Positions 8,657-43,682 of a DNA stretch of 64,000 nucleotides are shown here, one piece after another (positions within the stretch are counted from its first letter, which is position 1; the number at the start of each line of letters is the position of its first letter). The notes below the pieces were generated by a model. The model did no database searches, was not told where the DNA came from, and saw only the letters and a program-made list of their open reading frames with translations. Position numbers and translations under genes: made by a program. The DNA comes from Candidatus Heimdallarchaeum aukensis. GTDB taxonomy: Archaea; Asgardarchaeota; Heimdallarchaeia; Heimdallarchaeales; Heimdallarchaeaceae. The stretch covers positions 1,856,001 through 1,920,000 of the forward strand of contig CP084166.1 of NCBI GenBank assembly GCA_021513695.1. The letters are read 5' to 3'.

Positions 8657-8762
8657 AAGCCAAATAGTGGAGCCAGGACGGGGATTTGAACCCCGGAGGC
8701 ATAAGCCAGCGGTTATCTCTCTGATGTTTCGAGACCGCCTCCGTACCACTAGGATATCCTGG
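8657..8762 (-). tRNA. tRNA-Ser (anticodon CGA) with an anticodon-loop intron of about 13 nt
   Basis: Reverse complement: GCCAGGA acceptor, 3-bp D stem, anticodon stem GCGGT/ACCGC with loop CTCGAAA plus a CATCAGAGAGATA insert, a long variable arm, and T arm CGGGG-TTCAAAT-CCCCG. 3' strand TCCTGGC-T-CCA. Confidence 0.65.
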
Positions 8763-8903
8763 CAAAGGAAAAGTTCATTGTCTTGATTTTCATTGAAGTC
8801 AATATTTTAAGATTTCTACCTTGTTCACTTTTTAATTGATATAAGTACATTTGTGTTTCTTGATATTTTCGAACAAACAAAGATATGGTTAAAAAAAGAA
8901 AAG

Positions 8904-17983: not shown

Positions 17984-18711
17984 TCCTCTCTCTTTTTTAA
18001 ATTTTTAAAGTGAACATGTGTTGGAACATGAACAAAGATATAGTCTTTGGCTAATTCACTCAATTTTTTCGCTTCAAACAGAGTTAAGTGGTAATCTTCT
18101 TTTTTTTCAATGAATGTTGTTTCTATCAAAGCAAGGTCAATATCCTTGACAAGTTTTTCTAGTTGATCAAAATATCCAGTATCTCCTGTATATAAGATCG
18201 TTTCTTTGTTTTTTGATATTTTATATCCAACAGCACTCATTTTTTTTCCAGCTGGACTTAAAGAGCTTCTATGCTGCACTAAAAAAGGAGTTATAACAAA
18301 AGGTCCGAATTTAAGAGAAATGTCCTTTGCTTCGACAAAATTTATTTCAAAAGTTTGATGTTGCTTATGGTATTCTGTAAACACATTAATCATATTTTTA
18401 AGATTGGAGTTATCAGGAGGTGAAATGATATTGAGAGTTTTATTTCGTTTCACTAATCTAAAAATAGAGAGTAATGAAAATATACCTCCAACATGATCAA
18501 AATGGCCGTGGGTTATTGCAATAGTACTTATTTTCTCAAAAATTTGTCCTGGTAACTCTAATAGGTCTCTAACTATTCCATCTCCAGCATCAACTAAAAG
18601 AAAACTGTCTTCACCTCTACTCTGTATAAGTATTTGTGATGCAACTCCAGCAACAGAAAAAAGAACTTTTACATTGAATTCTTTTCCAACCCAATCCCAA
18701 TTAACACTCAT
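17980..18711 (-). CDS. Metallo-beta-lactamase fold hydrolase
   Basis: 243 aa with the AITHGHFDHVGG motif (HxHxDH) and downstream His/Asp ligands. Confidence 0.65.
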   Translation of the reverse strand: MSVNWDWVGKEFNVKVLFSVAGVASQILIQSRGEDSFLLVDAGDGIVRDLLELPGQIFEKISTIAITHGHFDHVGGIFSLLSIFRLVKRNKTLNIISPPDNSNLKNMINVFTEYHKQHQTFEINFVEAKDISLKFGPFVITPFLVQHRSSLSPAGKKMSAVGYKISKNKETILYTGDTGYFDQLEKLVKDIDLALIETTFIEKKEDYHLTLFEAKKLSELAKDYIFVHVPTHVHFKNLKKRED

Positions 18712-21722: not shown

Positions 21723-22743
21723 TGTATACTCTACCTACGTTGGTAACAAATAAATAGAAAGTGGGTTACGAGGGTAAATGATGAATTATGAACAAACCCG
21801 AACGTAACCTAGAGAGACTAAGAAAGATTGTGGTTAAAAAAGCTTTGGAAGGAGAAAAGAGAAGATAAAAAAGGTAGCTCACGACTATATGGTGAGTAGG
21901 AAGTTTGTGTATAAATGGTTAAAGAGGTTCAGAGAGAACCCTGAAGGAGAATGGTGGAAGGATAGATCTTCCAGACCAAAAACTATACACAGGAAAGTAG
22001 ATGAGGAGTTAAAAGAGAGGATAAGGGAGTTAAGAATAAAACAAGGAATGAATGTGGAGAAGATAGCTTATCTGTTGAAGAAAGAAGGAAGAGGATTATC
22101 GCGAAATACAGTAATTAAAGTAATAGGAGAGCTTGGTCTTCCTCTGTGGAGTAATAGGAAAAAGAGGAAGAGACCTCGATACAAGAGATTTGAGCGAGAA
22201 AAACCTAACGAACTCTGGCAGATAGATGTGAAAGGACCATTCTGGGTAGAAGAACAAGGATAGACAACATCTCCACCTCATAACTCTCATAGATGATCAC
22301 TCACGATTCTGTCTAGGAGCTAAACTTCACCCTTTTGCACCGAAAAAAGAGCAGATAATAAGTTTGCTAGAAGAAGCAATAGAAAAATATGGTCGCCCCG
22401 AGTCTATACTCACGGACAATGGAGCCCTCTTCTCTTCTGTTAGAGGAGGAACAAGTACCTTCTCCCGTTGGTGTCAAACAGAGGGAATAAAACACATCAG
22501 AGCTAGAGTTTTTCACCCTGAAACATGCGGAAAAGTAGAAAGACTACATGGAACCATCATCCGTGAGATGGAAAGATTAGGTCTAAAATACTGCAACTCC
22601 GACCTCTCTTACTATCGCTCGTACTACAATTTTAGTCGTCCTCACCAGTCTCTTAACCTCCTTACTCCTGGAGAAAGATTTATGAATCACCCTTACGTTT
22701 CTCTAGTGCCCAAAAGTGTAACCCATGTCTATTGAGTGAACAC
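21723..22743 (+). mobile_element. Degenerate IS481-family insertion element (~1.0 kb)
   Basis: Begins TGTATACTC and ends GAGTGAACACA, i.e. imperfect TGT...ACA termini. It contains a frame-disrupted DDE integrase/transposase and is flanked by 15-bp direct repeats. GC is higher than the surroundings. Confidence 0.55.
21889..22735 (+). pseudogene. IS481-family DDE transposase, disrupted by frameshifts and stops
   Basis: HTH part ...KVAHDYMVSRKFVYKWLKRF..., first Asp WQIDVKGPF, then a frame change to LIDDHSRFCLGAKLHPF..ILTDNGALFSS..CGKVERLHGTIIREM (DDE core). Upstream N-terminal codons are also interrupted. Confidence 0.65.
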
Positions 22744-22758
22744 AAAATTTTCCAATTT
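22744..22758. repeat. 15-bp direct repeat AAAATTTTCCAATTT (right flank of the IS481-like element)
   Basis: Exact copy of 21708-21722. Confidence 0.6.
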
Positions 22759-22824
22759 AATAAAAGAAGTATTTTAGTACAGAATTAAAAAGAATATTTT
22801 TGAATATAAAAAAAATGTAAACAT

Positions 22825-24237
22825 ATGAATAATTGGATTGAGTTTTATCTTTCATCACTCAGAGAACTTAAGCCTAGAAATCCCAATCAAAGCCATATTT
22901 TAATCGGTTTTAATGTTAATTTAGATAAAATAATAAAAATCACTCCAATTAATTTTTCCAACTATTTTTCTAAATTTCAAGATTTTGAAAATAACAATAG
23001 TTTTTCCCTAAAAGAAAAAATAATAGAAACAGAGGAGAATTTCTTTAAATTTCTTATCGATGCCATTAAAAGAGGAAAGGCTGAAGAATACCTCATAAAC
23101 GAAAAAATTCAGGAATGGATTGAATCAAATTTCTCTCTTGAGAAAACATGTATTGGAGGACAAGCTGCAATCATCGCAAATATATTAAGTGACTTTGGTT
23201 ACACCAACATAATTTTAAGTTTACCAGTAAAAGATAAACGCTTTAAACATCTACTTAATGAAGAAATAAGAATTCCAATCAAAAAGAATAATGAAGTAGA
23301 ATTATTACCAATAAAAAAAATACCCTTCAAAAGAAAATACAACATAGAGCACTATATCTTTGAATTCAATTCAGGGAAGTACTCTATAGGAAATAAGCGT
23401 ATAGTTTGCACTAGAAACAACAGATTTATAGCTTCTGCAGACACGATAAATTCAAAAATGATAATAGATGATGCTTTTGTAGAATGGAGCAGAAAAAATG
23501 CAAGATCAATTACAGTTGCAATATTATCTGGTTTTCATTTACTACGAAGTGAGATCTTAAAAGAAAAAGAGAAAAATAACTTAAACAGTACAATTGAACT
23601 AATAGAACAATTGAAGAAAAACAATAAACAGATAAAAATTCACATAGAGCTAGCTTCATTTAATAATATAGAAAGTTTAAGTTTTGTAATCGAAAAACTA
23701 TTTCCAACTATTGACTCCATTGGGTTAAATGAACAAGAACTAATCATGGTTGCAAGAATTTTTGACACTGAACTTTCTTCAAAAATGCGAAACGGAACAA
23801 TAATTGACTATTGTAATGGTTTATTTGAGATATTTAGAAGATTTTCAAACTTAAGGATTCATTTTCATTTCTTAGGTTACTATCTCATCCTCTCAAAACC
23901 AATTTCAGAAGAAAAAATTATGACTAGGCGTTCTTCTCTAATTAAAGCAGCAATTAAAGCCTATCAAAAAGTATCACTATCTTCAAATATATTATATATC
24001 AAAGAAAATATAAAAAATCTTATCTCACGTAAAGGAATAGATGAAATAAGAACATTAGAAGAGTACTTGGTTAAGAAGTATAAGGTTGAAGGATCACTTT
24101 CTTTTGATGGGTATTTAAGATCCGAAAAATTTACTATTGTTGCTATACCAACTTTAATAGAAAAAAAACCTACACATCTTGTAGGATTGGGGGACACTAT
24201 TTCTTCTGTGTCATTTATTGAAGATTATATTGACTAA
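22825..24237 (+). CDS. ADP-dependent sugar kinase family protein (ADP-dependent glucokinase/phosphofructokinase-like)
   Basis: 470 aa. N-terminal GFNVNLD motif (the NxNxD motif of the ADP-PFK/GK family), C-terminal VGLGDTISS motif, and the size typical of that family. Confidence 0.55.
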   Translation: MNNWIEFYLSSLRELKPRNPNQSHILIGFNVNLDKIIKITPINFSNYFSKFQDFENNNSFSLKEKIIETEENFFKFLIDAIKRGKAEEYLINEKIQEWIESNFSLEKTCIGGQAAIIANILSDFGYTNIILSLPVKDKRFKHLLNEEIRIPIKKNNEVELLPIKKIPFKRKYNIEHYIFEFNSGKYSIGNKRIVCTRNNRFIASADTINSKMIIDDAFVEWSRKNARSITVAILSGFHLLRSEILKEKEKNNLNSTIELIEQLKKNNKQIKIHIELASFNNIESLSFVIEKLFPTIDSIGLNEQELIMVARIFDTELSSKMRNGTIIDYCNGLFEIFRRFSNLRIHFHFLGYYLILSKPISEEKIMTRRSSLIKAAIKAYQKVSLSSNILYIKENIKNLISRKGIDEIRTLEEYLVKKYKVEGSLSFDGYLRSEKFTIVAIPTLIEKKPTHLVGLGDTISSVSFIEDYID

Positions 24238-24318
24238 CTTAGTAATAACATTTAAGCTTGAATAAAAATTTAGAAAAATTTTTGCTCTTATATATGCTAT
24301 GAAGGTAGTATTAATGAT

Positions 24319-25689
24319 ATGAGTTCCAGAATAAGTACTCATGATAATGTAATTGAATTATATCATAAAAAAAATTTGCAATTACGAGTTGAAATTTTTA
24401 AAATTAAAAATTTTAATGCAGAAAACAAGCACTTGATAAACGAGTTGACATCTAGAAAACAAACTTACAGTCTTTATATCTCAAAACAAGAAATTCTTTT
24501 GTTTATATATTATTTCAAAGATGAATTGGTAAGAATTGATTCTAAAGACGTATCTAATAACAGTTTTTTAGTTAGCTATGTAGATATAATAAATGAAACC
24601 AATAGTTATTTTCCAGTACAAAAAATTAGAAAAATAAAAGAAAAGAACGATATAATACAAATTACTTACGATAATAAAGAAAAAGAATTCTATAGAATAT
24701 ATGTATGCCAATTAAGAAAAGGAGAACAACTTCTAGAAAAAGATATTGCTAAGTATTTCAGTGATATAGCAAAGTTAGGTTTTTTTGACATTGTAATATC
24801 ACAAAAATTTGATAACAAGGAAGGAAAGAATAGTGAAAATTGGGGAATATTTCTAATTACAAAAAATAAAAATGAAAAAGAACTTGAAATAAAGCATAAG
24901 CATTTTATGAATTTAATTAATCGCAAAATAAAATTATTTAATATAAATTTTGTAAAGGCAACAAAAAAAGATATTGAGTGGAATAGAACTAAATTCCAGT
25001 TTTTATTACCATGGATAAGACACTCTGGGAATCTGGCATTTACATTAGATTTTAATTTATTTTTTAATAACTTCAACACTACAGCTAGACTAAACTTAAA
25101 AGAAAAACATGAAAACTTAAAAGGAAAAAAAGAGAAAATTAATTCAACTTATAATCCTGACAAAAAGCCATTACCTTCAGTAAAAGAAATAAACTACAAC
25201 ATAGGTAGATCAAATAAAGATTTTAAACTAAAAAAAGATGAAATTATGTCTCAAATTGAAGAACCGATGATTATTCAAACAATTCCAAAGACAACTGAAG
25301 TCTCAAAAAAATCAAATAAGGTTCAAATAAGAAAAACAGTTTCTGGAATTTTCAAAACAATTGGTTTCAAAGAAAGTTTAATTTTTAATAATAAGTTTGA
25401 TATCGTACTAAGACGAGGGACATCTTACATTTTTGTTATTATCTCTACAGATACATTTCTATCTCACAACGCTTATGAACTTATTGAAGAATTATCAAGC
25501 ATTGCTGGTTTAAGGAACAACTTTTTAGCGTTGGTTATTGCACCAGTTTTTGAACGACAAGCGGAGAAAATATTACGAGATTATAATATTATAATGGTCA
25601 ATAAGTTAGAAAGTATGGATGAAGAAACGTTAAAGAAAGTATTACACGAAAGATCTAGTGAATTATACTCATTTCTACCTGTTGCATAA
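24319..25689 (+). CDS. Hypothetical protein (Lys/Asn-rich)
   Basis: 456-aa ORF with no recognisable motif. Confidence 0.3.
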   Translation: MSSRISTHDNVIELYHKKNLQLRVEIFKIKNFNAENKHLINELTSRKQTYSLYISKQEILLFIYYFKDELVRIDSKDVSNNSFLVSYVDIINETNSYFPVQKIRKIKEKNDIIQITYDNKEKEFYRIYVCQLRKGEQLLEKDIAKYFSDIAKLGFFDIVISQKFDNKEGKNSENWGIFLITKNKNEKELEIKHKHFMNLINRKIKLFNINFVKATKKDIEWNRTKFQFLLPWIRHSGNLAFTLDFNLFFNNFNTTARLNLKEKHENLKGKKEKINSTYNPDKKPLPSVKEINYNIGRSNKDFKLKKDEIMSQIEEPMIIQTIPKTTEVSKKSNKVQIRKTVSGIFKTIGFKESLIFNNKFDIVLRRGTSYIFVIISTDTFLSHNAYELIEELSSIAGLRNNFLALVIAPVFERQAEKILRDYNIIMVNKLESMDEETLKKVLHERSSELYSFLPVA

Positions 25690-25753
25690 GAGTATTAAAA
25701 TCACATCTATTGAAAACTAGATTTCAAATATTTTTCTTAAAAAAACTTATTTT

Positions 25754-25828
25754 GGCGGGCCAGGCAGGATTTGAACCTACGATAGCCTGCTCCGGAGGCA
25801 GGTGCCTTATCCACTAGACTACTGGCCC
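25754..25828 (-). tRNA. tRNA-Arg (anticodon CCG); CCA encoded
   Basis: Reverse complement: GGGCCAG acceptor, D arm GTCT-AGTGGATA-AGGC, anticodon stem CCTGC/GCAGG with loop CTCCGGA, T loop TTCAAAT, 3' strand CTGGCCC-G-CCA. Confidence 0.8.
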
Positions 25829-25934
25829 AAGATTAATTAAAGTAGAATTGAAAAAGTTGTCATTTTCGGACAAATAACTCGTTTTTATAAAGTAAATTCG
25901 GTTCTTGGAAAAGAATAAAGGTTAAAATTTCTAA

Positions 25935-26279
25935 CTAATCATATTCTCTCCAAGTGTGACCACATTCCACGCACCGGAAAAACCGAGTTGGAGATTCATC
26001 TGCACTTCTAGTCTGTCGTTGCCAATAGGTAACCCTCTGCTTCTTTTCACATTTTGGACAGTATAATTCTCTTGTAGGCAAGGTTTCATCAATCGCAGAC
26101 TCGTCAATAACCTCCGACTTTAATAACTCTCTTTCTATATCATGGTTAATTTCCTCTGTAAATGAATTATCTTGGGCATCACTAATTTCCTTTGTATAAC
26201 CGCATTTTGTACAAATTAATTTACTACTTTCTGGTATCAATAATTTTCCACACTTAGGACAAAATTCCAATAGTATCAC
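25935..26279 (-). CDS. tfs: Transcription factor S (TFS / RpoM-like)
   Basis: 114 aa with an N-terminal zinc ribbon (CPKCG...CTKCG) and the C-terminal TFIIS-type ribbon CPKCEKKQRVTYWQRQTRSADESPTRFFRCVECGHTW carrying the RSADE acidic loop. Confidence 0.9.
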   Translation of the reverse strand: MILLEFCPKCGKLLIPESSKLICTKCGYTKEISDAQDNSFTEEINHDIERELLKSEVIDESAIDETLPTRELYCPKCEKKQRVTYWQRQTRSADESPTRFFRCVECGHTWREYD

Positions 26280-26359
26280 CTATACGCCTTGAATGATACT
26301 AAAATTATTGTTTCAAAAATATTTCTTTTAAAGTAAAAAATTGGAAAAAAATTATGATT

Positions 26360-27100
26360 TCAGACAAACATTCCTTTATCTGAATCATCCTTTTCAGCCT
26401 GAGGTTTGTTAGCTTTCAGCAGACTCTGAATTTCTTTTTCAATTTTTTCAGCTTGCTCAATTAGTGCAGAAATATCTACAGTAATACCAACCATCTTTTC
26501 TATCTCTTTAATTGCAATACTTGCTGCAATTGGGTCGGGCCTTGATCTTTCTGCGTAAGGTAATAAAGCCATAGCTGGAAAATCATGTAATTCAGAAAAG
26601 AGCATTACATAGGCTAAAGGCCCAGTTACATAGAGACCCTCATCTAAAGTTGGAATTGAAATAGACTTCTCAAGTTTAATAAAAGCTTGAGTATATATCG
26701 CTTTTAGCTGGTTATCATCTTTAAGTCTGTTGTCTAAGCCACCAACCAATATTGCTTGTTTAAAACCAGTATCAATACACCATTTTACTAATGTTTTTGT
26801 AAATTTTAAGTGCTCACTTTTTATTGGTTCAAAAATAGGTAATACAATGACTAGATTATCCTTTCGGTATATTTCAAAGGGAAAAGTAATGCGTTCATTT
26901 TTTATAGTTATAAATTGAGGTATATTTTCTGTAATTATAAAACCTATTCTCTTAGCTTCTATCTTTTCAACAATGTGACTAACAGATATATAACCACACT
27001 CACCAATCCCATGCCAACCATTCAATAATGTACAACCTTTAAAATCCTCTTTTTCTTTAAATACAAAACTAATTTCTCCGTAGTTTTTTGTAAAAACCAT
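26360..27100 (-). CDS. PAC2-family protein (proteasome assembly chaperone-like), putative
   Basis: 246 aa. LLNGWHGIGECGYIS resembles the PAC2 GFPGVGLVG region. Weak assignment. Confidence 0.4.
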   Translation of the reverse strand: MVFTKNYGEISFVFKEKEDFKGCTLLNGWHGIGECGYISVSHIVEKIEAKRIGFIITENIPQFITIKNERITFPFEIYRKDNLVIVLPIFEPIKSEHLKFTKTLVKWCIDTGFKQAILVGGLDNRLKDDNQLKAIYTQAFIKLEKSISIPTLDEGLYVTGPLAYVMLFSELHDFPAMALLPYAERSRPDPIAASIAIKEIEKMVGITVDISALIEQAEKIEKEIQSLLKANKPQAEKDDSDKGMFV

Positions 27101-27145
27101 ATTTTTCCACCAATAAGATTAAATAGAAAAGAAAAATGAAGAAGG

Positions 27146-27880
27146 TTATTTCCTTCCTTTCTTTCGACCACTTCGTTTAGCAGCTATCAAACCAACTTTC
27201 TTTCCTGGTTGAGAATGTCTAGATACTGTTGTAGATCTTGGTGGACCTTGATGTGAGCCACCACCATGTGGATGACTGACAGCATTCATGGCAACACCTC
27301 GAACACGTGGGTAATAATGGCCTTTTGCTTTCATTGCATGATATTTATTTCCTGCTTTAACAAAAGGTTTCTCTGTTCGACCTCCACCAGCAACAATACC
27401 AATAGTTGCTCTACATTTTTGTGGAATCTCTTTTATTTCACCGCTAGGTAACTGAACTTTGACTTTGCCTTTATCTCTGCCAAGGATTAAAGCATAGCCA
27501 CCACTTGAACGAATAATTCGACCACCATCACCTGGAGTAAGTTCGATATTAAATACAGGAGTTCCATCGGGTATAAATTGTAAAGGAAGGGTATTGTTAA
27601 TTTGTATAGAAGCTGCTGCCCCATACTCTATCTGTTGACCTACTCTAACACCTTCAGAAACTAAACTAACCTTTTTGAGTTCATCCTCAAAAAGAATTCT
27701 TGCGATAGGAGCTCCTCTTCCAGGATCATGGATAATATCTTTAACTACACCAGTAATTTTCCCGGAGTATTCTATTTTAGAGAGTTTTCTATATTTTACA
27801 CTCCCTTTTCTTTTATGAGAAGCGGCACGAAATTGTGATGTTCCTCTTCCGCGTCTTTGGACTAAAATTTTCTTACCCAT
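27146..27880 (-). CDS. rpl2: 50S ribosomal protein L2 (uL2)
   Basis: 244 aa ending ...VAMNAVSHPHGGGSHQGPPRSTTVSRHSQPGKKVG..., the canonical uL2 C-terminus. Confidence 0.9.
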   Translation of the reverse strand: MGKKILVQRRGRGTSQFRAASHKRKGSVKYRKLSKIEYSGKITGVVKDIIHDPGRGAPIARILFEDELKKVSLVSEGVRVGQQIEYGAAASIQINNTLPLQFIPDGTPVFNIELTPGDGGRIIRSSGGYALILGRDKGKVKVQLPSGEIKEIPQKCRATIGIVAGGGRTEKPFVKAGNKYHAMKAKGHYYPRVRGVAMNAVSHPHGGGSHQGPPRSTTVSRHSQPGKKVGLIAAKRSGRKKGRK

Positions 27881-27892
27881 TTTTTCACCACC

Positions 27893-28162
27893 TTAGAATA
27901 GACCCATCTTCGAAGCAATATCAGCAGCATCATCAAATTCACTCAATTTTACATAGGCTTTTTTCGTACCTCGTGGGGTAATTAAAGTATTAACTTTTTC
28001 TACTTTAACATTATACAATTTTTCTATTGCTTCCTTGATTTGATGCTTTGTTGCTCTACGATCAACTAGGACGACGAGTTTATTTTCTCTTTCAATTAAC
28101 TCGAAATCTTTCTCGCTAATTAAAGGTTTTTTAATTATATTGTACAAATCCATTATCCTCAC
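27893..28162 (-). CDS. rpl23: 50S ribosomal protein L23 (uL23)
   Basis: 89-aa ORF in the L4-L23-L2 order; ...[42 protein letters not shown].... Confidence 0.85.
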
Positions 28163-28944
28163 CTGTATTTTTCATTCAAATATGCAACAGCTTTTTCAGT
28201 CCATATTGTTAGTCGACCTGGATCAGCTCCTGGAGCAAGTAACTCTGTTCGTAATTTATCAACTGGTTGCACATCAACTCCTAAAACATTTCTAGCAGCT
28301 TTTAGTATGGGACTATCGTCATTACCTACAACAATTAATGGGCCAACAGGCGTTTTATATCTTCGTCCACGCATTTTTCCTTTTCCAGGGCGGATACGAC
28401 GACCATTTTTAACTCGTTCTAGATCTGCCCCAACGCCTAAATTTTTCAACAATTTAATTGCATCCTTTGTTTTTGATATGTCTTCTGCTTTTGACTCTAC
28501 GATTATTGGAAACTCAACAGAATCATTGAAGCGATGTCCTCTTTCTCGTACTGCATCTTTTAATGCTGTAAAAGCAATCGACGATTTCAAAGCAAGAAGA
28601 TGCTCTTTTTTGTTGATTTTCTCAATAATGTTTTTAGCACTTTTTGGAGGATGCGCTTTGTGTCCACCTCTTGCTTGTGGTACAAAAGCTCCACGTTGGG
28701 CACTATGGGTTCTCGTTCCTTTTGTTCGAGGTACCCTTGCTGCTCCTCTTCCAGGACCCCAGTTTTCTACAGAAACTAGTCTACCAGCTAAGGGACTAAC
28801 TCCTTTTGGTTGCCTGTTCCAACTTTGTTCTGCAAGGACAGCACGTTTAATTACATCTTTCCTTAATGGAGTTTTAAAAACAACAGGTAGTTCCATTTCG
28901 ACATTTGTCTTTGTACCATTTACTGACATAATAATAGCTTTCAT
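28159..28944 (-). CDS. rpl4: 50S ribosomal protein L4 (uL4)
   Basis: 261 aa with ...[16 protein letters not shown]...[36 protein letters not shown]. Confidence 0.85.
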
Positions 28945-28949
28945 TCATT

Positions 28950-29951
28950 TCACCCTTGTTGACTTTTCCTTGATATATAAGTTATCTGTGGCTCTTTTTC
29001 TTGCTGCGGAGTTTTTCTCATGGGTTTTCTCAAAAATACTGTACGCTTTTTGCTTCCAGGAATTGAACCTTTAACTAAAACGTAGTTATTTTTTACCAGC
29101 CCATAATTTACAAATCCGCCATCAGGAATAATTTCTTTACCATCAGAACCTATTTGCATAATTCTTTTGTTGTATTCTGTACGAGTATGAAAACCCATTT
29201 GACCATGTCGGGGAACAGTCCACATTGTTCGTGCTGGGTGCCAGGGGCCTATTGAACCAACACCACGTTTTGTTCCTTTAGATTTGTGTTGTAGTATTTT
29301 GATTCCATGTCTTTTAACAGGTCCTTGGAAACCTTTTCCTTTTGTAACAGCAATTACATCGGCAAACTCTCCAGCTTTGAACACATCACGTATCATTACT
29401 TCCTTGCCTAATAGAGATAATCCATATTCGAATCCTTCAGAGGGACTATTACAACCGATTTTTATTTCGGCAATAGAGGGGGTTTTTGTACCTATCCCAG
29501 TCAAGTATGGTTGTGTATGTACAATGGCTCTGATCTCCACCATTTCGGGGAGCTTTTCTTCAAAGTTCTTTTTTGCTTTCTCAAAATCGTATTTTTTAGG
29601 GGTTTTAACACGCCGACGTAATTCTTCCTTATATTCAGAAGAGAAGAGATCAGCTGAAATACTAAGACCATATGGAGTCTTAGCGTAGCCGCGGAGACCA
29701 TAAACAACAATTGGTGGGGTCTCAATAACAGTGCAAGCTACTGTTACCTCGCGGTTCGCCAGATGACTTTGCCGGCGATCCTCTATATACGATAGTTGGC
29801 TCATTCCCGCTTTGATACCTAAGAAACCAAGCAACTTTGGCTGCCCGTTATATTCTGGCCAAGCTCTTGGTTTAGGAGTAAGCCTTGCGGCCCTATTCCT
29901 TCTGTATCCAAGCGATGAGCGACGAGGTGCATGGCTTGTTCTACTTCCCAT
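28950..29951 (-). CDS. rpl3: 50S ribosomal protein L3 (uL3)
   Basis: 333 aa starting MGSRTSHAPRRSSLGYRRNRAARL, the archaeal uL3 N-terminus. The 5' two-thirds (29288-29951) lies inside tandem-duplication copy 1. Confidence 0.9.
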   Translation of the reverse strand: MGSRTSHAPRRSSLGYRRNRAARLTPKPRAWPEYNGQPKLLGFLGIKAGMSQLSYIEDRRQSHLANREVTVACTVIETPPIVVYGLRGYAKTPYGLSISADLFSSEYKEELRRRVKTPKKYDFEKAKKNFEEKLPEMVEIRAIVHTQPYLTGIGTKTPSIAEIKIGCNSPSEGFEYGLSLLGKEVMIRDVFKAGEFADVIAVTKGKGFQGPVKRHGIKILQHKSKGTKRGVGSIGPWHPARTMWTVPRHGQMGFHTRTEYNKRIMQIGSDGKEIIPDGGFVNYGLVKNNYVLVKGSIPGSKKRTVFLRKPMRKTPQQEKEPQITYISRKSQQG

Positions 29952-31473
29952 GTTATCTCACATCTTTATTTTTATTTTTTATACCATAAAACCAGTTTGT
30001 TATTTTTAATGTACAAACTGGTATCTTATGCTTGTATTCCGAAAATCATTTTGCTCATATAAAGATGTTGTTTTGCGTTTTTTATAATACAGCTAGAAAA
30101 CTAGACTTTACTAAAATAACGTTTTAAAGGACTTCCACAATCTGGACAATGAACCAGTTTTTTTGTGAATTTAGCTCCACACACAGTACATTTCCAGAAA
30201 TACTTTTTCTTTTTTGTAATTTTAAAGAAAGAAGATTCTACTCTAATATTAAATATCTTACATAAATTTTGAATAGCATTATCATCTGAAATGATAGTGA
30301 ACTCTGGGTTTTCTATTGCAAGAGCTATAATAGTAAGATCATAACTCGATAATCGTCCATATTCACCAGCTTGCTTAGCTAGATTAACTGCTTTAGAAAA
30401 GGAAGAAGATGAAGGGATGAGAAAAAGAATGTTTTGTTTATTCTCAAGAAGACTTAAAACTAAATTGCTTTCAAATGATTTTAATTCCTCAGTGATATTA
30501 GCGGGAATTATAACAACACAATCGTCTGTTAAGAACCAATCTTTTGCCAAGATTTGGATTACAACCGTAGAGTCTAGTATTAATTTTTTTGGAAAATTTT
30601 TAGGTAAATGTCGCTCTTGAACCAATTAATTCACCGAATACGTTCCAACAACTTATTTCGAACACGTTTTATATAATTATCAGAGAATCTAATAAATCTA
30701 ATTTTTTCTCCAGATTTGTAAATCTTTACATGTTCATTGTATCCTAACGTGTAGTGAGCCTGTCCATCAACAACAACGATGCCTGTTCTGAATTTAGCCT
30801 CGTTAGTAACTGTTACTACCGTATCAGTTGAAAAAACAATAGGAGAAACATTTACAATAAAGGGACAGATTGGAACAAGGCAAAAAGCTTCTACATTAGG
30901 CATAATCAAAGGTCCTCCAGCTGACCTTGCATATGCGCTAGAACCTGCACTTGTAGAAACGATTACACCATCACCTTCAATAACATAAAATAATTTGTCA
31001 TTAATTTCAACCTTTAACCTCATAATGTTTCCATGATTCTTTGGAACAATAGTTATATCATTAACTGCTGAAATAGGGGGATAAGACTCTGATGAGACAG
31101 CTACTGTTGAAAACTCTTCTATTATAAATTCATCATTCAATATTTTATTGATTGCCCAATCTAACTTTTGTGGAATTATCTCAGTAAGAAAACCTACACG
31201 ACCACAATTAACTCCCAAAATAGGAGATTCTTTCCATTGAGTAAAAGTTTTCAGGATTGTCCCATCTCCTCCAAAAACAATGACTAGATCGGGTTGTTGT
31301 CCTTGTATAATGAAATCAGATTTCCGTAAATTTTTAGCTAAAACTTGACTTAGAGCAACCTTATAACCCTTTTCTAATAACATAGAAAGCGCTTCTGATG
31401 CAGAAATCAAAGCACTTTCTTTTTCTGATGAAACTAGAAGTATTAAAGAATCTTTTGTCAGCAATGCCCTTCT
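29288..31473. repeat. Tandem duplication, copy 1 (2186 bp)
   Basis: The sequence 29288-31473 recurs at 31474-33658 with near-perfect identity. One 1-bp indel was seen (tcgctcttg at ~30611 versus tcctcttg at ~32797). Confidence 0.9.
30101..30625 (-). CDS. nob1: Nob1-like PIN-domain endonuclease with a C-terminal zinc ribbon (rRNA maturation), copy 1
   Basis: 174 aa. PIN-like N-terminus (KLILDSTVVIQ...DD...) and terminal CTVCGAKFTKKLVHCPDCGS zinc ribbon. Size and architecture match archaeal Nob1. Confidence 0.55.
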   Translation of the reverse strand: MVQERHLPKNFPKKLILDSTVVIQILAKDWFLTDDCVVIIPANITEELKSFESNLVLSLLENKQNILFLIPSSSSFSKAVNLAKQAGEYGRLSSYDLTIIALAIENPEFTIISDDNAIQNLCKIFNIRVESSFFKITKKKKYFWKCTVCGAKFTKKLVHCPDCGSPLKRYFSKV

Positions 31474-31539
31474 GTTGTAGTATTTTGATTCCATGTCTTT
31501 TAACAGGTCCTTGGAAACCTTTTCCTTTTGTAACAGCAA
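30631..31539 (-). CDS. nadK: NAD kinase (NadK/PpnK), copy 1; the N-terminal 25 codons extend into duplicated rpl3-antisense sequence
   Basis: 302-aa ORF with the GGDGT motif (VIVFGGDGTILKT). By alignment with copy 2, the ancestral start is probably the TTG at 31464. Confidence 0.7.
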   Translation of the reverse strand: MLLQKEKVSKDLLKDMESKYYNRRALLTKDSLILLVSSEKESALISASEALSMLLEKGYKVALSQVLAKNLRKSDFIIQGQQPDLVIVFGGDGTILKTFTQWKESPILGVNCGRVGFLTEIIPQKLDWAINKILNDEFIIEEFSTVAVSSESYPPISAVNDITIVPKNHGNIMRLKVEINDKLFYVIEGDGVIVSTSAGSSAYARSAGGPLIMPNVEAFCLVPICPFIVNVSPIVFSTDTVVTVTNEAKFRTGIVVVDGQAHYTLGYNEHVKIYKSGEKIRFIRFSDNYIKRVRNKLLERIR

Positions 31540-32137
31540 TTACATCGGCAAACTCTCCAGCTTTGAACACATCACGTATCATTACTTCCTTGCCTAATAG
31601 AGATAATCCATATTCGAATCCTTCAGAGGGACTATTACAACCGATTTTTATTTCGGCAATAGAGGGGGTTTTTGTACCTATCCCAGTCAAGTATGGTTGT
31701 GTATGTACAATGGCTCTGATCTCCACCATTTCGGGGAGCTTTTCTTCAAAGTTCTTTTTTGCTTTCTCAAAATCGTATTTTTTAGGGGTTTTAACACGCC
31801 GACGTAATTCTTCCTTATATTCAGAAGAGAAGAGATCAGCTGAAATACTAAGACCATATGGAGTCTTAGCGTAGCCGCGGAGACCATAAACAACAATTGG
31901 TGGGGTCTCAATAACAGTGCAAGCTACTGTTACCTCGCGGTTCGCCAGATGACTTTGCCGGCGATCCTCTATATACGATAGTTGGCTCATTCCCGCTTTG
32001 ATACCTAAGAAACCAAGCAACTTTGGCTGCCCGTTATATTCTGGCCAAGCTCTTGGTTTAGGAGTAAGCCTTGCGGCCCTATTCCTTCTGTATCCAAGCG
32101 ATGAGCGACGAGGTGCATGGCTTGTTCTACTTCCCAT
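31474..32137 (-). pseudogene. Truncated duplicate of rpl3 (5' 664 bp only)
   Basis: Identical to rpl3 codons 1-221 (MGSRTSHAPRR...HGIKILQ). It then runs into unrelated sequence at the duplication junction 31473/31474. The track ORF 31361..32137 is this chimera. Confidence 0.8.
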
Positions 32138-32286
32138 GTTATCTCACATCTTTATTTTTATTTTTTATACCATAAAACCAGTTTGTTATTTTTAATGTAC
32201 AAACTGGTATCTTATGCTTGTATTCCGAAAATCATTTTGCTCATATAAAGATGTTGTTTTGCGTTTTTTATAATACAGCTAGAAAA

Positions 32287-32850
32287 CTAGACTTTACTAA
32301 AATAACGTTTTAAAGGACTTCCACAATCTGGACAATGAACCAGTTTTTTTGTGAATTTAGCTCCACACACAGTACATTTCCAGAAATACTTTTTCTTTTT
32401 TGTAATTTTAAAGAAAGAAGATTCTACTCTAATATTAAATATCTTACATAAATTTTGAATAGCATTATCATCTGAAATGATAGTGAACTCTGGGTTTTCT
32501 ATTGCAAGAGCTATAATAGTAAGATCATAACTCGATAATCGTCCATATTCACCAGCTTGCTTAGCTAGATTAACTGCTTTAGAAAAGGAAGAAGATGAAG
32601 GGATGAGAAAAAGAATGTTTTGTTTATTCTCAAGAAGACTTAAAACTAAATTGCTTTCAAATGATTTTAATTCCTCAGTGATATTAGCGGGAATTATAAC
32701 AACACAATCGTCTGTTAAGAACCAATCTTTTGCCAAGATTTGGATTACAACCGTAGAGTCTAGTATTAATTTTTTTGGAAAATTTTTAGGTAAATGTCCT
32801 CTTGAACCAATTAATTCACCGAATACGTTCCAACAACTTATTTCGAACAC
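32287..32850 (-). CDS. nob1: Nob1-like PIN/zinc-ribbon endonuclease, copy 2 (N-terminus altered by a 1-bp indel)
   Basis: 187-aa ORF identical to copy 1 from HLPKNFPKK onward. The upstream frame differs because of the single-base difference between the repeat copies. Confidence 0.5.
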   Translation of the reverse strand: MFEISCWNVFGELIGSRGHLPKNFPKKLILDSTVVIQILAKDWFLTDDCVVIIPANITEELKSFESNLVLSLLENKQNILFLIPSSSSFSKAVNLAKQAGEYGRLSSYDLTIIALAIENPEFTIISDDNAIQNLCKIFNIRVESSFFKITKKKKYFWKCTVCGAKFTKKLVHCPDCGSPLKRYFSKV

Positions 32851-33649
32851 GTTTTATATAATTATCAGAGAATCTAATAAATCTAATTTTTTCTCCAGAT
32901 TTGTAAATCTTTACATGTTCATTGTATCCTAACGTGTAGTGAGCCTGTCCATCAACAACAACGATGCCTGTTCTGAATTTAGCCTCGTTAGTAACTGTTA
33001 CTACCGTATCAGTTGAAAAAACAATAGGAGAAACATTTACAATAAAGGGACAGATTGGAACAAGGCAAAAAGCTTCTACATTAGGCATAATCAAAGGTCC
33101 TCCAGCTGACCTTGCATATGCGCTAGAACCTGCACTTGTAGAAACGATTACACCATCACCTTCAATAACATAAAATAATTTGTCATTAATTTCAACCTTT
33201 AACCTCATAATGTTTCCATGATTCTTTGGAACAATAGTTATATCATTAACTGCTGAAATAGGGGGATAAGACTCTGATGAGACAGCTACTGTTGAAAACT
33301 CTTCTATTATAAATTCATCATTCAATATTTTATTGATTGCCCAATCTAACTTTTGTGGAATTATCTCAGTAAGAAAACCTACACGACCACAATTAACTCC
33401 CAAAATAGGAGATTCTTTCCATTGAGTAAAAGTTTTCAGGATTGTCCCATCTCCTCCAAAAACAATGACTAGATCGGGTTGTTGTCCTTGTATAATGAAA
33501 TCAGATTTCCGTAAATTTTTAGCTAAAACTTGACTTAGAGCAACCTTATAACCCTTTTCTAATAACATAGAAAGCGCTTCTGATGCAGAAATCAAAGCAC
33601 TTTCTTTTTCTGATGAAACTAGAAGTATTAAAGAATCTTTTGTCAGCAA
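32816..33649 (-). CDS. nadK: NAD kinase (NadK/PpnK), copy 2; no in-frame ATG, candidate TTG start
   Basis: 277-aa ORF identical to copy 1 from LTKDSLILLV onward. An upstream in-frame stop at 33677-33679 leaves only the TTG at 33649 as a start. Confidence 0.65.
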   Translation of the reverse strand: MLTKDSLILLVSSEKESALISASEALSMLLEKGYKVALSQVLAKNLRKSDFIIQGQQPDLVIVFGGDGTILKTFTQWKESPILGVNCGRVGFLTEIIPQKLDWAINKILNDEFIIEEFSTVAVSSESYPPISAVNDITIVPKNHGNIMRLKVEINDKLFYVIEGDGVIVSTSAGSSAYARSAGGPLIMPNVEAFCLVPICPFIVNVSPIVFSTDTVVTVTNEAKFRTGIVVVDGQAHYTLGYNEHVKIYKSGEKIRFIRFSDNYIKRVRNKLLERIR

Positions 33650-33876
33650 TGCCCTTCTAAAGAAAATAAGAATTATCTAATAAAAATATTGGGTTGGAAA
33701 TAAATTATTATAATTAAGTATTAATAAAGCACCTAATCTCAGAAAATTCAAATAAAGTATCCTTTAATTTTTATTGAGTACTATAACAAACTCTTACTAT
33801 TTATTCAAGACACATAATAATTTTCTTCAACAAGATATAGTTTTAAAAAGTATTAGTACTAAAAAGAATTGATAGA

Positions 33877-34716
33877 ATGCGATATGCAGTAAAAGTTTTT
33901 TATTTGGGTGATTATTATTATGGTTACCAAAGACAACCTGATGTACCTACTGTAGAAGGTACAATTATCAATGCACTAAAGAAGGCAGGATACATTACTG
34001 ATGTAAAAACAAGTAATTTTGCAAGTGCAACACGGACTGACCGTTATGTAAGTGCATTAGGAAATTGTTTCGCTTTTAATACAAAAAAGGATCTAATAAT
34101 TACCCAATTAAATCATTTTTTACCTCACAATAACAGTATTATTTGTTGGGCAAAAAGCACCGTAGACGAAGATTTTTCTCCAAGGTTTGCAAAACTAAAA
34201 AAATATTGGTATTTTCTCTCAAGAGACTACATAAATGAAAAACAGTTATCAATTAATGATATAAAGAAAGTAAGTAAAAAATTCGAGGGAACCCACGATT
34301 TTAGATTATTTTCAAAGTTTAATGAAAAAGATACTATACGATCAATTGACAAAATTAATTTAATTGAAAATCAAGATAGTTTAATTTTAGAATTCATCGG
34401 TCAATCATTTCTTTGGCAGCAAATTAGAAGAATTGTATCCTACATTTTATCATTTCCTTTTCTACCAGAACAGTTTCAAGACACAGAGGAATTATTAGGG
34501 GAAAATAGCATAAATCACCTTCCCCTTAAACCAGCAAGTCCACACCACCTTTTATTTGTTGAGCATTATTATGAAAATCTTAATTGGAAAGTAAACCAAA
34601 CCACATTAAAGAAAATTTTATCATATTCAATGTTTCAATCTTTTGAACTCGATTCAAAACATGCTAGATTCAAAAAGCAATGGTCCTTTTTTAAAGATAG
34701 GATCGAAGAAAATTAA
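33877..34716 (+). CDS. truA: tRNA pseudouridine synthase A (TruA/Pus1-like)
   Basis: 279 aa with ASATRTDRYVSALGN (compare the RTDAGVHA catalytic-Asp motif) and GTHDFRLFSK (compare GTHDFxxF). Confidence 0.65.
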   Translation: MRYAVKVFYLGDYYYGYQRQPDVPTVEGTIINALKKAGYITDVKTSNFASATRTDRYVSALGNCFAFNTKKDLIITQLNHFLPHNNSIICWAKSTVDEDFSPRFAKLKKYWYFLSRDYINEKQLSINDIKKVSKKFEGTHDFRLFSKFNEKDTIRSIDKINLIENQDSLILEFIGQSFLWQQIRRIVSYILSFPFLPEQFQDTEELLGENSINHLPLKPASPHHLLFVEHYYENLNWKVNQTTLKKILSYSMFQSFELDSKHARFKKQWSFFKDRIEEN

Positions 34717-41459: not shown

Positions 41460-42023
41460 TTATCGCACTTCAATACGTTTCTTTTCAACTGCCTTTATTA
41501 ATTCACGAGCAAAAGTTTGAAATGCCTCTTCTACCTTTTCTCCAGTTTTAGCACTAGTTATGAAGAATGAATCTGTAGGTAAATCAAGTTCTTTTACTAT
41601 ATTAAGTGCTTCCTCTTCATCAACAGCAATTTGATCTTTTAGATCGGCTTTATTACCAATAACAAAAAATATTACGTCATCCTCTACCCCATTTAATCCA
41701 CGTTTCCATTCACGTATAGATTCTAACGTGTTAGGCCTTGTCAGATCAAAAACAAGAAAGCACCCTTTTGACCCACGATAAAACTTCTCTCTAACAGAAG
41801 AAAACCTTTCTTGACCCCCAATATCTGAAATCAAAAATAATACCTCGTCCTCCCCCACAAATAATTGTTTACTTAAAATGTCTACCCCAATAGTGATCAT
41901 ATACGATGATTCAAATCGATTATGGACATATCTTGAAATTAATGAACTTTTGCCTACTCCGGGATCTCCAAGTAAGACAATTTTAAATATGTATTTTTTT
42001 CCCTGAGATTTATTTAGAGTCAT
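41460..42023 (-). CDS. Ras-superfamily small GTPase, Rab-like
   Basis: 187 aa with G1 GDPGVGKSS, switch I YMITIGVD (Rab-like TIGVD), G3 DIGGQERF, G4 GNKADL and G5 TSAK. Confidence 0.75.
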   Translation of the reverse strand: MTLNKSQGKKYIFKIVLLGDPGVGKSSLISRYVHNRFESSYMITIGVDILSKQLFVGEDEVLFLISDIGGQERFSSVREKFYRGSKGCFLVFDLTRPNTLESIREWKRGLNGVEDDVIFFVIGNKADLKDQIAVDEEEALNIVKELDLPTDSFFITSAKTGEKVEEAFQTFARELIKAVEKKRIEVR

Positions 42024-42154
42024 TTTTGAACCCTTTATTGCACCTTATCTTCTTTAATATTTACAGCTTTTTATGTTTTTTTACTCATTCAATTAATTTT
42101 TTTCAATGTGTTAAAATTTTATAGAAGTAAAATTAAGGAATAATAATTAAATTA

Positions 42155-42463
42155 TTAAACAGTATTATCCCAAATGTTGAATAATTGTTTTAATGAGTGA
42201 GCTCTAATATTTTGATCTTGATATTGAAATATTCGAATTCTACCAAAAGTTTTTTCTTTTACTAAACCAATTCTTACCAGATATTCTAAATGATTAACTA
42301 CAACTCCATGATTTAACTTCACTTGTTTAGATATTGCAGATATGTTAATTTCTCCTTTCTCAGCCAAAAGTTTCAAGATTTTTACTCTCCCACGAGAAGA
42401 TAAGACCTCATCTATTGGTGGAGAACTCGTAGATTTAATACTCTGATTATTTATTTTAGCCAA
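42155..42463 (-). CDS. Winged-helix transcriptional regulator, putative
   Basis: 102 aa with a predicted HTH (RVKILKLLAEKGEINISAISKQVKLNHGVVVNHLEYLVRIGLV). Confidence 0.4.
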   Translation of the reverse strand: MAKINNQSIKSTSSPPIDEVLSSRGRVKILKLLAEKGEINISAISKQVKLNHGVVVNHLEYLVRIGLVKEKTFGRIRIFQYQDQNIRAHSLKQLFNIWDNTV

Positions 42464-43682
42464 CCTCCTTTTTTTGACTTACTTCACCTTTGCTCTTTGT
42501 TAAAGATTTCAATATAACATCTTCAATAAATGCCAAAGGAGCATCAGGAACACTGATAAGTGTTGTTTTTCCTTTCATTCCTTTTCCTGAAAGTTTGCAG
42601 TTAATAATATCTTGTTTTGAAAGTTCATTCAAATAAGACCAAAACTGAGTATGCTTTCTGGGGTGTTCGCCATACTCTTCGCAGAGCAAGCGATATGTAC
42701 TTATAGCATCGCTTGTTGAAATATATGCATTTTTTGTATGTTTAAGTTTTCGCAAGATAGACAACAATGTCAGTTTCTCGTGAATGGAAAGAACTAACAC
42801 AACCTCCTTACGTAACTCTGGATGAATTAACGACTTTGCTTTTCTTACATGATCAGGATAAACAACAGGAGAGTTGTCGTTATCACAACAATGTCCAGCA
42901 CCCCAAAGTAGTTCAATGGCATATCGAGCATCACCAGTTTTACTTGCAATATCAGCAATAAGCCTTATTGCATCATCTGTAACTGTTTCTTTATAAAAAG
43001 CCAGTTCAGCTCTTGATCTAACAATATCAATTAAATCAGATTCAGAATATCTGTCCAACGATATGTGATTAGAGTGAAAACTACTTTGTGTACTTGTGTC
43101 AAGTAGTTTCAAGAAATTAGTATTTTTTGCGATAAAAATGTAGGAAACATATTGATCTTGTGATATTTCTCCAATTCTTAATAGAGAATATAAGATATCA
43201 GTTCCAGTACGTGTGACTAAGTAATCAATTTCATCAAGAACTATCAGCAGCTTATATTTATTCTGCTGTAAATGCTTCACAAAAAAATGCTGTAATTCTT
43301 CAACAGAATAACCTCTTTGCGGGATATTTTTGTTCAGTTTTTGTAGAAGGACATTAAATATCAAATAAGGACTTTTATAAATACGGCAATTTATATATAT
43401 AAAGTGAAAATTTTTAATTTTAACTACATTTTCTAAAATTTGACCAAATCTTTTCGCAAGTGTGGTTTTGCCAGAACCTGTTGGGCCAGTAATAGTTGCA
43501 TAACGGCTAAAATTAAGATAATTATTTGTTAAATGTTTATATTGCTTTGCCAAGAGTCTTAGCTCTTCTTCACGATGGGGGAGTAAAGGTGGAATAAAGG
43601 AAATTGATAAATAACCTTCATTTTTAATCACGGAAGGTTTTTCAGCTAATAATTTAAAATAATCTTCATCAGATGAATACAT
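42456..43682 (-). CDS. orc1: Orc1/Cdc6 replication initiation protein
   Basis: AAA+ Walker A TGPTGSGKTT, Walker B LIVLDEIDYL, LPHREEEL motif and C-terminal winged helix. The start is set at Met29 (MYSSDEDYF), which is preceded by TTTATATTTATAG. The ORF extends to 43766. Confidence 0.8.
   Translation of the reverse strand: MYSSDEDYFKLLAEKPSVIKNEGYLSISFIPPLLPHREEELRLLAKQYKHLTNNYLNFSRYATITGPTGSGKTTLAKRFGQILENVVKIKNFHFIYINCRIYKSPYLIFNVLLQKLNKNIPQRGYSVEELQHFFVKHLQQNKYKLLIVLDEIDYLVTRTGTDILYSLLRIGEISQDQYVSYIFIAKNTNFLKLLDTSTQSSFHSNHISLDRYSESDLIDIVRSRAELAFYKETVTDDAIRLIADIASKTGDARYAIELLWGAGHCCDNDNSPVVYPDHVRKAKSLIHPELRKEVVLVLSIHEKLTLLSILRKLKHTKNAYISTSDAISTYRLLCEEYGEHPRKHTQFWSYLNELSKQDIINCKLSGKGMKGKTTLISVPDAPLAFIEDVILKSLTKSKGEVSQKKEVG

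Follow-up and report, generated by a model that had tools for sequence, protein, structure and literature searches.

The closest described counterparts of the structure reported here are the spontaneous tandem duplications of Salmonella and E. coli. These are head-to-tail repeats of a few kilobases with identical copies and little or no homology at the join; they are absent from the closest relatives, and their junctions fuse or truncate genes and place a gene behind a foreign promoter. The same combination of features was found in a 64-kb stretch of DNA (the window, to which all coordinates below refer) from the closed 3,081,793-bp chromosome of Candidatus Heimdallarchaeum aukensis PM71. In this window, a 2.2-kb unit containing part of rpl3 (ribosomal protein uL3), nob1, and nadK (NAD kinase) is present twice in direct succession, with 1 nt of shared sequence at the join. 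Since the junction involves only 1 nt and is not flanked by insertion sequence (IS) elements or rRNA repeats, the duplication would belong to the RecA-independent, microhomology-type class. Unlike the bacterial examples, it was seen in an Asgard archaeon that has not been cultured and whose genome was recovered from the metagenome of an enrichment. The tandem junction is considered to be real in the DNA of the sample with a probability of about 0.8.

Two further comparisons are relevant. Repeat artifacts of hybrid scaffolded assemblies also consist of two adjacent copies that are nearly identical and whose breakpoints look arbitrary, in sequences where short-read contigs were joined by long reads, and the locus shares all of these properties; it differs from them in that the raw reads, when assembled independently, give a graph that branches at both boundaries and in that the junction holds one T and not two. 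The archaeal uL3-uL4-uL23-uL2 operon (S10-like) is represented by an intact rpl3 heading rpl3-rpl4-rpl23-rpl2, as in all 25 Heimdallarchaeial loci retrieved, but only PM71 repeats the first two-thirds of rpl3 together with its predicted promoter and leader.

Structure of the repeat and its junction

Comparison of the window with itself gave an exact match of 1326 nt at an offset of 2186 (29287-30612) and an exact match of 860 nt at an offset of 2185 (30614-31473). No ambiguous bases were present in this self-comparison, and no other long repeat was found in the 64-kb window. The two exact-match runs define copy 1 at 29287-31472 (2186 nt), which is distal to the promoter with respect to minus-strand transcription and carries a G at 30613, and copy 2 at 31473-33658 (2185 nt), which is proximal to the promoter and is 1 bp shorter, a base being missing between 32798 and 32799. 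Both copies are direct, adjacent, head-to-tail, and in the same orientation, and a single novel junction links the unit end to the unit start. The repeat is confirmed in the sequence and is far beyond what chance would produce. An earlier note on this DNA had described near-identical direct tandem copies with a 1-bp difference that begin at 29288 and 31474, which is the same call shifted by one base.

The same T occupies positions 29287, 31473, and 33658 and constitutes 1 nt of microhomology at the junction. Because this T is common to the three positions, the unit boundary can be placed only to within 1 nt. At 2187 nt, the maximal repeat corresponds to the unit plus the 1 nt of microhomology, which is the length that a real junction would give. 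The novel junction at 31455-31492, where the unit end meets the unit start via the T, reads ...GCAATGCCCTTC-T-GTTGTAGTATT..., and the junction-specific sequence was taken as GCAATGCCCTTCTGTTGTAGTATT. The junction at 31455-31492 occurs once in the window and is found neither in two contigs of a sister strain (L001 and L002) nor in the genome of the sister species (L003). The left breakpoint falls after codon 221 of the 333 codons of rpl3, and the right breakpoint falls 9 nt upstream of the TTG start codon of nadK, in agreement with the previous description of a unit that runs from inside rpl3 to the start of nadK and duplicates nob1 and nadK. Neither an IS element nor any longer homology was found at the breakpoints.

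Support for the junction in the raw reads

The presence of the junction in the raw reads, independently of the published assembly, was deduced from the contig ends in Logan, in which each SRA run is assembled separately at k = 31, k-mers of single occurrence are discarded, the graph is cleaned up in a SPAdes-like manner, and all 31-mers are distinct. Run SRR15988954 yielded three contigs of the same strain as the window. SRR15988954_10618 covers 22713-29316 of the window at 100% identity, SRR15988954_33244 is 2187 nt long and is the exact reverse complement of 29287-31473 (that is, of copy 1 with the shared T), and SRR15988954_1205 (18.7 kb) starts at 33629 and is 100% identical over the 11 kb that was fetched. 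Each of the two flank contigs overlaps the unit contig by 30 nt, which equals k - 1. Since the contigs break at these positions with 30-nt overlaps, the read graph branches at both ends of the unit; in a compacted de Bruijn graph, breaks of this kind characterize a repeat node with a fork at each end. Had the genome been single copy and junction reads absent, one contig through both positions would be expected, as was observed in the sister-strain assemblies. The pattern expected of an artifact, a linear raw-read graph that passes through the outer boundaries without junction k-mers, was not what was found.

Further data on the breaks came from the other runs. One contig of SRR15988958 likewise stops precisely at 31473, where there is no homopolymer. 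The corresponding contig of SRR15988959 ends at 29315, one base short, in a T-run where the contigs of that run commonly break, and this end was deemed ambiguous and was not counted. No intact L3 of the PM71 strain was found among the Logan contigs, in which the L3 of PR6 (the sister species) is present, and this fits a graph break inside rpl3. Strain-variable sites were considered as a cause of the breaks and were rejected, as no single-nucleotide polymorphism (SNP) lies at the boundaries; the nearest strain SNPs are 352 nt and 823 nt from the left breakpoint on its two sides and 41 nt from the right breakpoint. The composition of the junction was also informative, as it holds a single T, while the joining of two 2187-nt nodes would yield TT.

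The PM71 assembly was obtained with metaSPAdes from Illumina reads, was scaffolded twice by LRScaf with short Nanopore reads, and was then polished with Pilon, at 346x (genome paper). The Illumina library was prepared with NEBNext; the Nanopore DNA was preamplified by multiple displacement amplification (MDA), and that of one run was also amplified by PCR, with MDA stated for the Nanopore runs only (genome paper). Identical sequences at the ends of the genome were trimmed by hand (genome paper). The primers used for closure and for gap resequencing in the genome paper were sought in the window and none was found, from which it follows that the duplication is neither at the authors' end-joining site nor in the 1-kb gap that was resequenced by the Sanger method. 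The genome paper makes no mention of the duplication, L3, Nob1, or NAD kinase.

A number of points weigh against a real tandem duplication in the chromosome. The assembly route of PM71 is error-prone at repeats. The junction 31-mers are deduced from the contig break points, and the de Bruijn graph gives two neighbors per unit end, not their identity, copy number, or cell fraction. The three runs are not biological replicates because all of them derive from one DNA sample, FW4588, and the assignment of SRR15988954 to Illumina was made from contig quality alone, its contigs being long and error-free while those of SRR15988958 and SRR15988959 are short, contain indels, and are broken at homopolymers. 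The 38-nt junction gave no match in a metagenome contig collection, a result without weight since the positive control failed in the same way: the 38-mer of the native right boundary, which L001 and L002 contain, was likewise not matched. The 1-bp deletion of copy 2 is present in the GenBank record only and is absent from Logan, where the contigs of two runs show the G, although bubble popping in Logan could hide an allele at 50%. Even a real deletion may have been placed in the wrong copy, since the site is 860-1326 nt away from unique sequence, too far for phasing by short reads.

An exact-protein look-up with the chimeric L3 (258 aa), NadK (277 aa), and Nob1 of copy 2 (187 aa) returned no contig, and the collection searched seemingly does not include the source chromosome. 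L001 and L002 were found by protein look-up yet were not matched in the exact 38-mer search, which indicates that the two contig collections differ.

Single-copy state in relatives and age of the duplication

The sister strain is represented by the JGI contigs Ga0366832_1000360 (L001, 80.7 kb) and Ga0366835_1002477 (L002, 30.1 kb), which are ~99% identical to the window and contain the unit once, unbroken through both boundaries. The unit is also present once in the closed genome of the sister species Ca. H. endolithica PR6 (L003, CP084167.1), at ~88-92% DNA identity in the region, in agreement with the average nucleotide identity of 88% between aukensis and endolithica (PMC8813620). Furthermore, L3 is single copy in 25 of 25 Heimdallarchaeial loci retrieved (PR6 and 24 others). 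The comparison with related genomes that had been proposed as a check was thus made, and the single-copy state was found to be ancestral in the close relatives.

Within the unit, PM71 differs from the sister strain by 32 substitutions, every one of which is common to both copies, and no substitution separates the copies from each other. Because all 32 are common to both copies, the duplication is deduced to postdate the split from the 99%-identical strain. These data support a duplication that would be very recent and strain-specific, and the suggestion of a very recent event, made originally from the near-identity of the copies, is upheld by the relatives.

Alternative explanations

Four other explanations were weighed. 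In one of them, only one unit would be real, and two SPAdes contigs overlapping by 2.2 kb would have been concatenated by LRScaf, with the 1-bp difference left as a contig-end or polishing error. The use of metaSPAdes and LRScaf with short amplified Nanopore reads, the hand-trimmed genome ends, the near-identity of the copies, the arbitrary-looking breakpoints, and the single copy in both the sister strain and the sister species would all be in keeping with this. It does not account for the independent k = 31 assembly, which breaks exactly at 29287 and 33658 and has the unit as its own 2187-nt contig, nor do strain SNPs or homopolymers explain these breaks, and the one T at the junction is not the TT expected. 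The assembly artifact that the earlier note had raised is, in the form of an unmerged overlap, largely refuted and is considered very unlikely. MDA generates chimeras, and with Nanopore libraries preamplified in this way, one of them also by PCR, the junction could in principle have been made in vitro by template switching. The clean breaks at both boundaries were nevertheless observed in an Illumina-like run for which no MDA is stated, and a second run also has its break at base 31473; in addition, random chimeras would be rare per site, and at ~346x their low-coverage links should be removed. A library chimera is held to be highly improbable on these grounds. A long-standing duplication homogenized by gene conversion, also allowed for in the earlier note, would be compatible with the near-identity taken alone, but no relative has the duplication, which is absent from both the 99%-identical sister strain and the sister species. 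The truncated rpl3 and the promoter-less nadK are not obviously worth keeping, and the frameshift in one copy was not homogenized. The gene-conversion reading, to which only the slightest probability is given, and a dispersed-copy reading were both rejected in view of the relatives and the single-T junction.

The fourth explanation accepts the junction as real and concerns the state of the chromosome. The repeat may be confined to a subpopulation, may be amplified to a higher copy number, or may represent an excised 2.2-kb circle beside a single-copy chromosome, and these states look alike in the de Bruijn graph. Tandem duplications are unstable and are usually polymorphic in populations. The G/deletion difference could itself be polymorphic in the population, its assignment to one copy being an arbitrary choice by Pilon; Logan shows only the G in two runs. 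Against a very rare variant, the junction path survived the k-mer removal and clean-up of Logan, from which its rarity was judged; against a circle, the unit is without a replication gene or replicon feature that would maintain it. The closed, Pilon-polished 346x assembly of the authors also retained two copies. Overall, a junction that is real but not fixed on a two-copy chromosome was regarded as unlikely.

Gene content of the two copies

The uL3, Nob1-like, and NAD kinase genes were identified by searches of Pfam, NCBIfam, and PDB and are all on the minus strand, as are the spacers and the native nadK upstream region described below. In the direction of transcription, the order is the native nadK upstream region, nadK copy 2, nob1 copy 2, a spacer, the rpl3 fragment, and the junction, followed by nadK copy 1, nob1 copy 1, a second spacer, intact rpl3, rpl4, rpl23, and rpl2. 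Directly upstream placement of nadK and nob1 to rpl3 was observed, among the 25 loci, only in the genus Heimdallarchaeum, and judged from these loci the nadK-nob1-rpl3 linkage is a genus-level novelty. In other Heimdallarchaeia, truA lies upstream of rpl3 at a distance of 6-8 kb and is separated from it by other genes.

Intact rpl3 (28950-29951) encodes a uL3 of 333 aa (PF00297, 1.7e-81) and heads rpl4-rpl23-rpl2. The protein scored 416 bits against TIGR03626 L3_arch (cutoff, 308.7) and 422 bits against NF003261 (cutoff, 341), placing it above the equivalog thresholds for archaeal uL3. The second rpl3 sequence, at 31361-32137, is a chimeric truncated open reading frame (ORF) of 258 aa that consists of 221 native codons and a 37-codon out-of-frame tail into the start of nadK copy 1; it contains the 221-codon fragment that had been assigned to copy 2 beforehand. 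Its last ~100 nt, up to the stop at 31361, coincide in a different frame with the start of nadK copy 1, and it is deposited in GenBank as UJG39873.1 with the label '50S ribosomal protein L3'. Since it spans only positions 2-245 of the 369 positions of the profile, it was deduced to be a fragment and not a functional member of the family.

The two nadK copies, at 30631-31464 (copy 1) and 32816-33649 (copy 2), encode identical proteins of 277 aa. Copy 1 has kept its native TTG at 31464 and the 9 bases upstream of it but is without the native promoter and is preceded by the rpl3 fragment. Copy 2 has kept the native upstream region (33659-33876), which is divergently shared with truA and which, as seen by alignment, is outside the unit and unduplicated. 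Both NAD kinase domains were detected above their Pfam cutoffs (PF01513, 58 bits with a cutoff of 25.5; PF20143, 98 bits with a cutoff of 23.7), and the NCBIfam NAD kinase models were matched at 6e-59, yet under their equivalog cutoffs. The longest possible ORF of nadK copy 1 is 302 aa, from a TTG at 31539. An N-terminal extension of this copy, as proposed previously, thus exists as a longer ORF, but it is read from frame +1 of the rpl3 sense (minus) strand and not from rpl3-antisense sequence.

Copy 1 of nob1 (30101-30625; GenBank UJG39871.1) encodes a PIN_6 protein of 174 aa and has a native start in which GGTGA is followed after 5 nt by TTG, a Shine-Dalgarno layout equal to that of rpl4 and rpl2. 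The protein scored 37 bits against PF17146 PIN_6 (cutoff, 27) and has a C-terminal CxxC...CxxC zinc ribbon at residues 145-168. Residues 9-168 were similar to PDB 2LCQ (E = 3.4e-18), which is P. horikoshii Nob1 and was the top hit among solved structures, and yeast NOB1 (8C01) was matched at 4.5e-5. The product is a predicted Nob1 on the basis of both domain content and similarity. Nob1 is the pre-rRNA D-site endonuclease of archaea and eukaryotes.

The single-base difference in nob1

The sole difference between the copies is the G at 30613 (GTCGCTC) of copy 1, which is missing from copy 2 (GTCCTC) and falls in codon 5 of nob1. In nob1 copy 2 (32287-32850), the native TTG at 32810 is consequently frameshifted, with a stop after 14 codons, and the annotated product is instead a form of 187 aa (UJG39874.1) that starts at a GTG at 32850, inside nadK, without a Shine-Dalgarno sequence. 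The claim that the indel changes the N terminus of Nob1 was therefore borne out, the native form of 174 aa being replaced by the GTG-started form. Both the sister strain and PR6 have the 174-aa form as well. Since the sister strain carries the G of copy 1, this base is ancestral and the 1-bp deletion is the derived state. The chances that the deletion is real are put at about even; if it is, nob1 copy 2 is probably a pseudogene.

Predicted promoter and leader in the nob1-rpl3 spacer

The nob1-rpl3 spacer of copy 1 (29952-30100, 149 nt) contains a TATA-like sequence, CTTTATATG, at 30056-30064 and a leader hairpin at 29985-30030. The spacer of copy 2 (32138-32286) is identical and places the duplicated predicted rpl3 promoter and leader upstream of the rpl3 fragment, nadK copy 1, and nob1 copy 1. 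Between aukensis and Ca. H. endolithica PR6, the spacer is ~98% conserved, compared with ~90% for the surrounding DNA. The hairpin has a 10-bp stem followed by UUUU and a fold z score of -3.25, and none of 200 shuffled sequences folded as well. An Rfam scan of 28500-34500 (E <= 1) assigned no family to the rpl3 leader hairpin. The element could be a leader or regulatory element of the rpl3 operon, or it could be a terminator of nadK-nob1.

Proposed mechanism and consequences

The duplication probably arose by illegitimate recombination or by replication template switching between two sites that share 1 nt, namely the site after rpl3 codon 221 and the site 9 nt before nadK. This assignment to illegitimate recombination or template switching is made because the junction is of 1 nt and is without IS elements or longer homology. 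The event would fall in the recent history of the enrichment lineage. Since the unit does not include the native nadK upstream region, the downstream nadK-nob1 pair would have lost its own promoter. This second pair may be transcribed from the duplicated rpl3 promoter, a promoter capture that would be accompanied by higher dosage. The L3 fragment would be a nonfunctional by-product, and the 1-bp deletion, if real, would inactivate one nob1 copy. As read from the gene arrangement, the net effect is probably a raised dosage of nadK, and possibly of nob1, together with a useless L3 fragment.

A further proposal is that the duplication is an adaptive amplification selected in the laboratory enrichment. 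The rpl3 promoter and leader, strong and highly conserved in this view, would bring nadK-nob1 to the expression level of a ribosomal protein, and the deletion would be a selected second step that silences surplus Nob1. This proposal is regarded as quite improbable. If it were true, the supply of nicotinamide adenine dinucleotide phosphate (NADP), the maturation of small-subunit rRNA, or both would have been rewired, and the locus would be a natural example of duplication followed by pseudogenization, in two steps, in the archaeal lineage closest to eukaryotes.

Other observations in the window

At 8668-8763 on the minus strand, ARAGORN reported a 'tRNA-???' of 96 nt whose anticodon has 4 bases (cgaa); it is probably an archaeal tRNA with an intron, parsed incorrectly by the program. 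The sister-strain contig L001 carries a gene for an rve-family integrase/transposase at its positions 17381-18160, ~7.4 kb downstream of rpl3 and adjoining the match to window position ~22700. Both SRR15988954_10618 and L002 end near window positions 22629-22713, which suggests a repeated mobile element there. Eukaryotic-signature genes flank the locus, including an Arf/Ras-family small GTPase (window ~41900-42500; gene tables of L001 and L044), a PAC2 proteasome-assembly chaperone, and TFS, and also in the region 25935-27100; these genes fit an Asgard origin.

Implications

The microhomology-type tandem duplication favored here is an instance of a well-known kind and an ordinary structural variant, new as an instance only. 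Its practical importance derives from the position of aukensis among the very few closed genomes of the Asgard clade nearest to eukaryotes, for which it serves as a reference. GenBank and UniRef hold misleading records from this locus, namely UJG39873.1, the chimeric L3, and UJG39874.1, a Nob1 with an artificial N terminus, which result from the duplication and the indel. As uL3 serves universally as a phylogenomic marker, pipelines for marker selection or for the scoring of duplication and contamination can be misled. The contigs that Logan provides for each run are usable as an independent check on the read support of repeats in published assemblies, even where the reads are out of reach.

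Gene duplication in Asgard archaea bears on eukaryogenesis, while the phenomenon itself is well known in bacteria. If the duplication is fixed or present at high frequency, the locus would be a clean, nascent duplication of the microhomology type, with promoter capture, in an Asgard archaeon.

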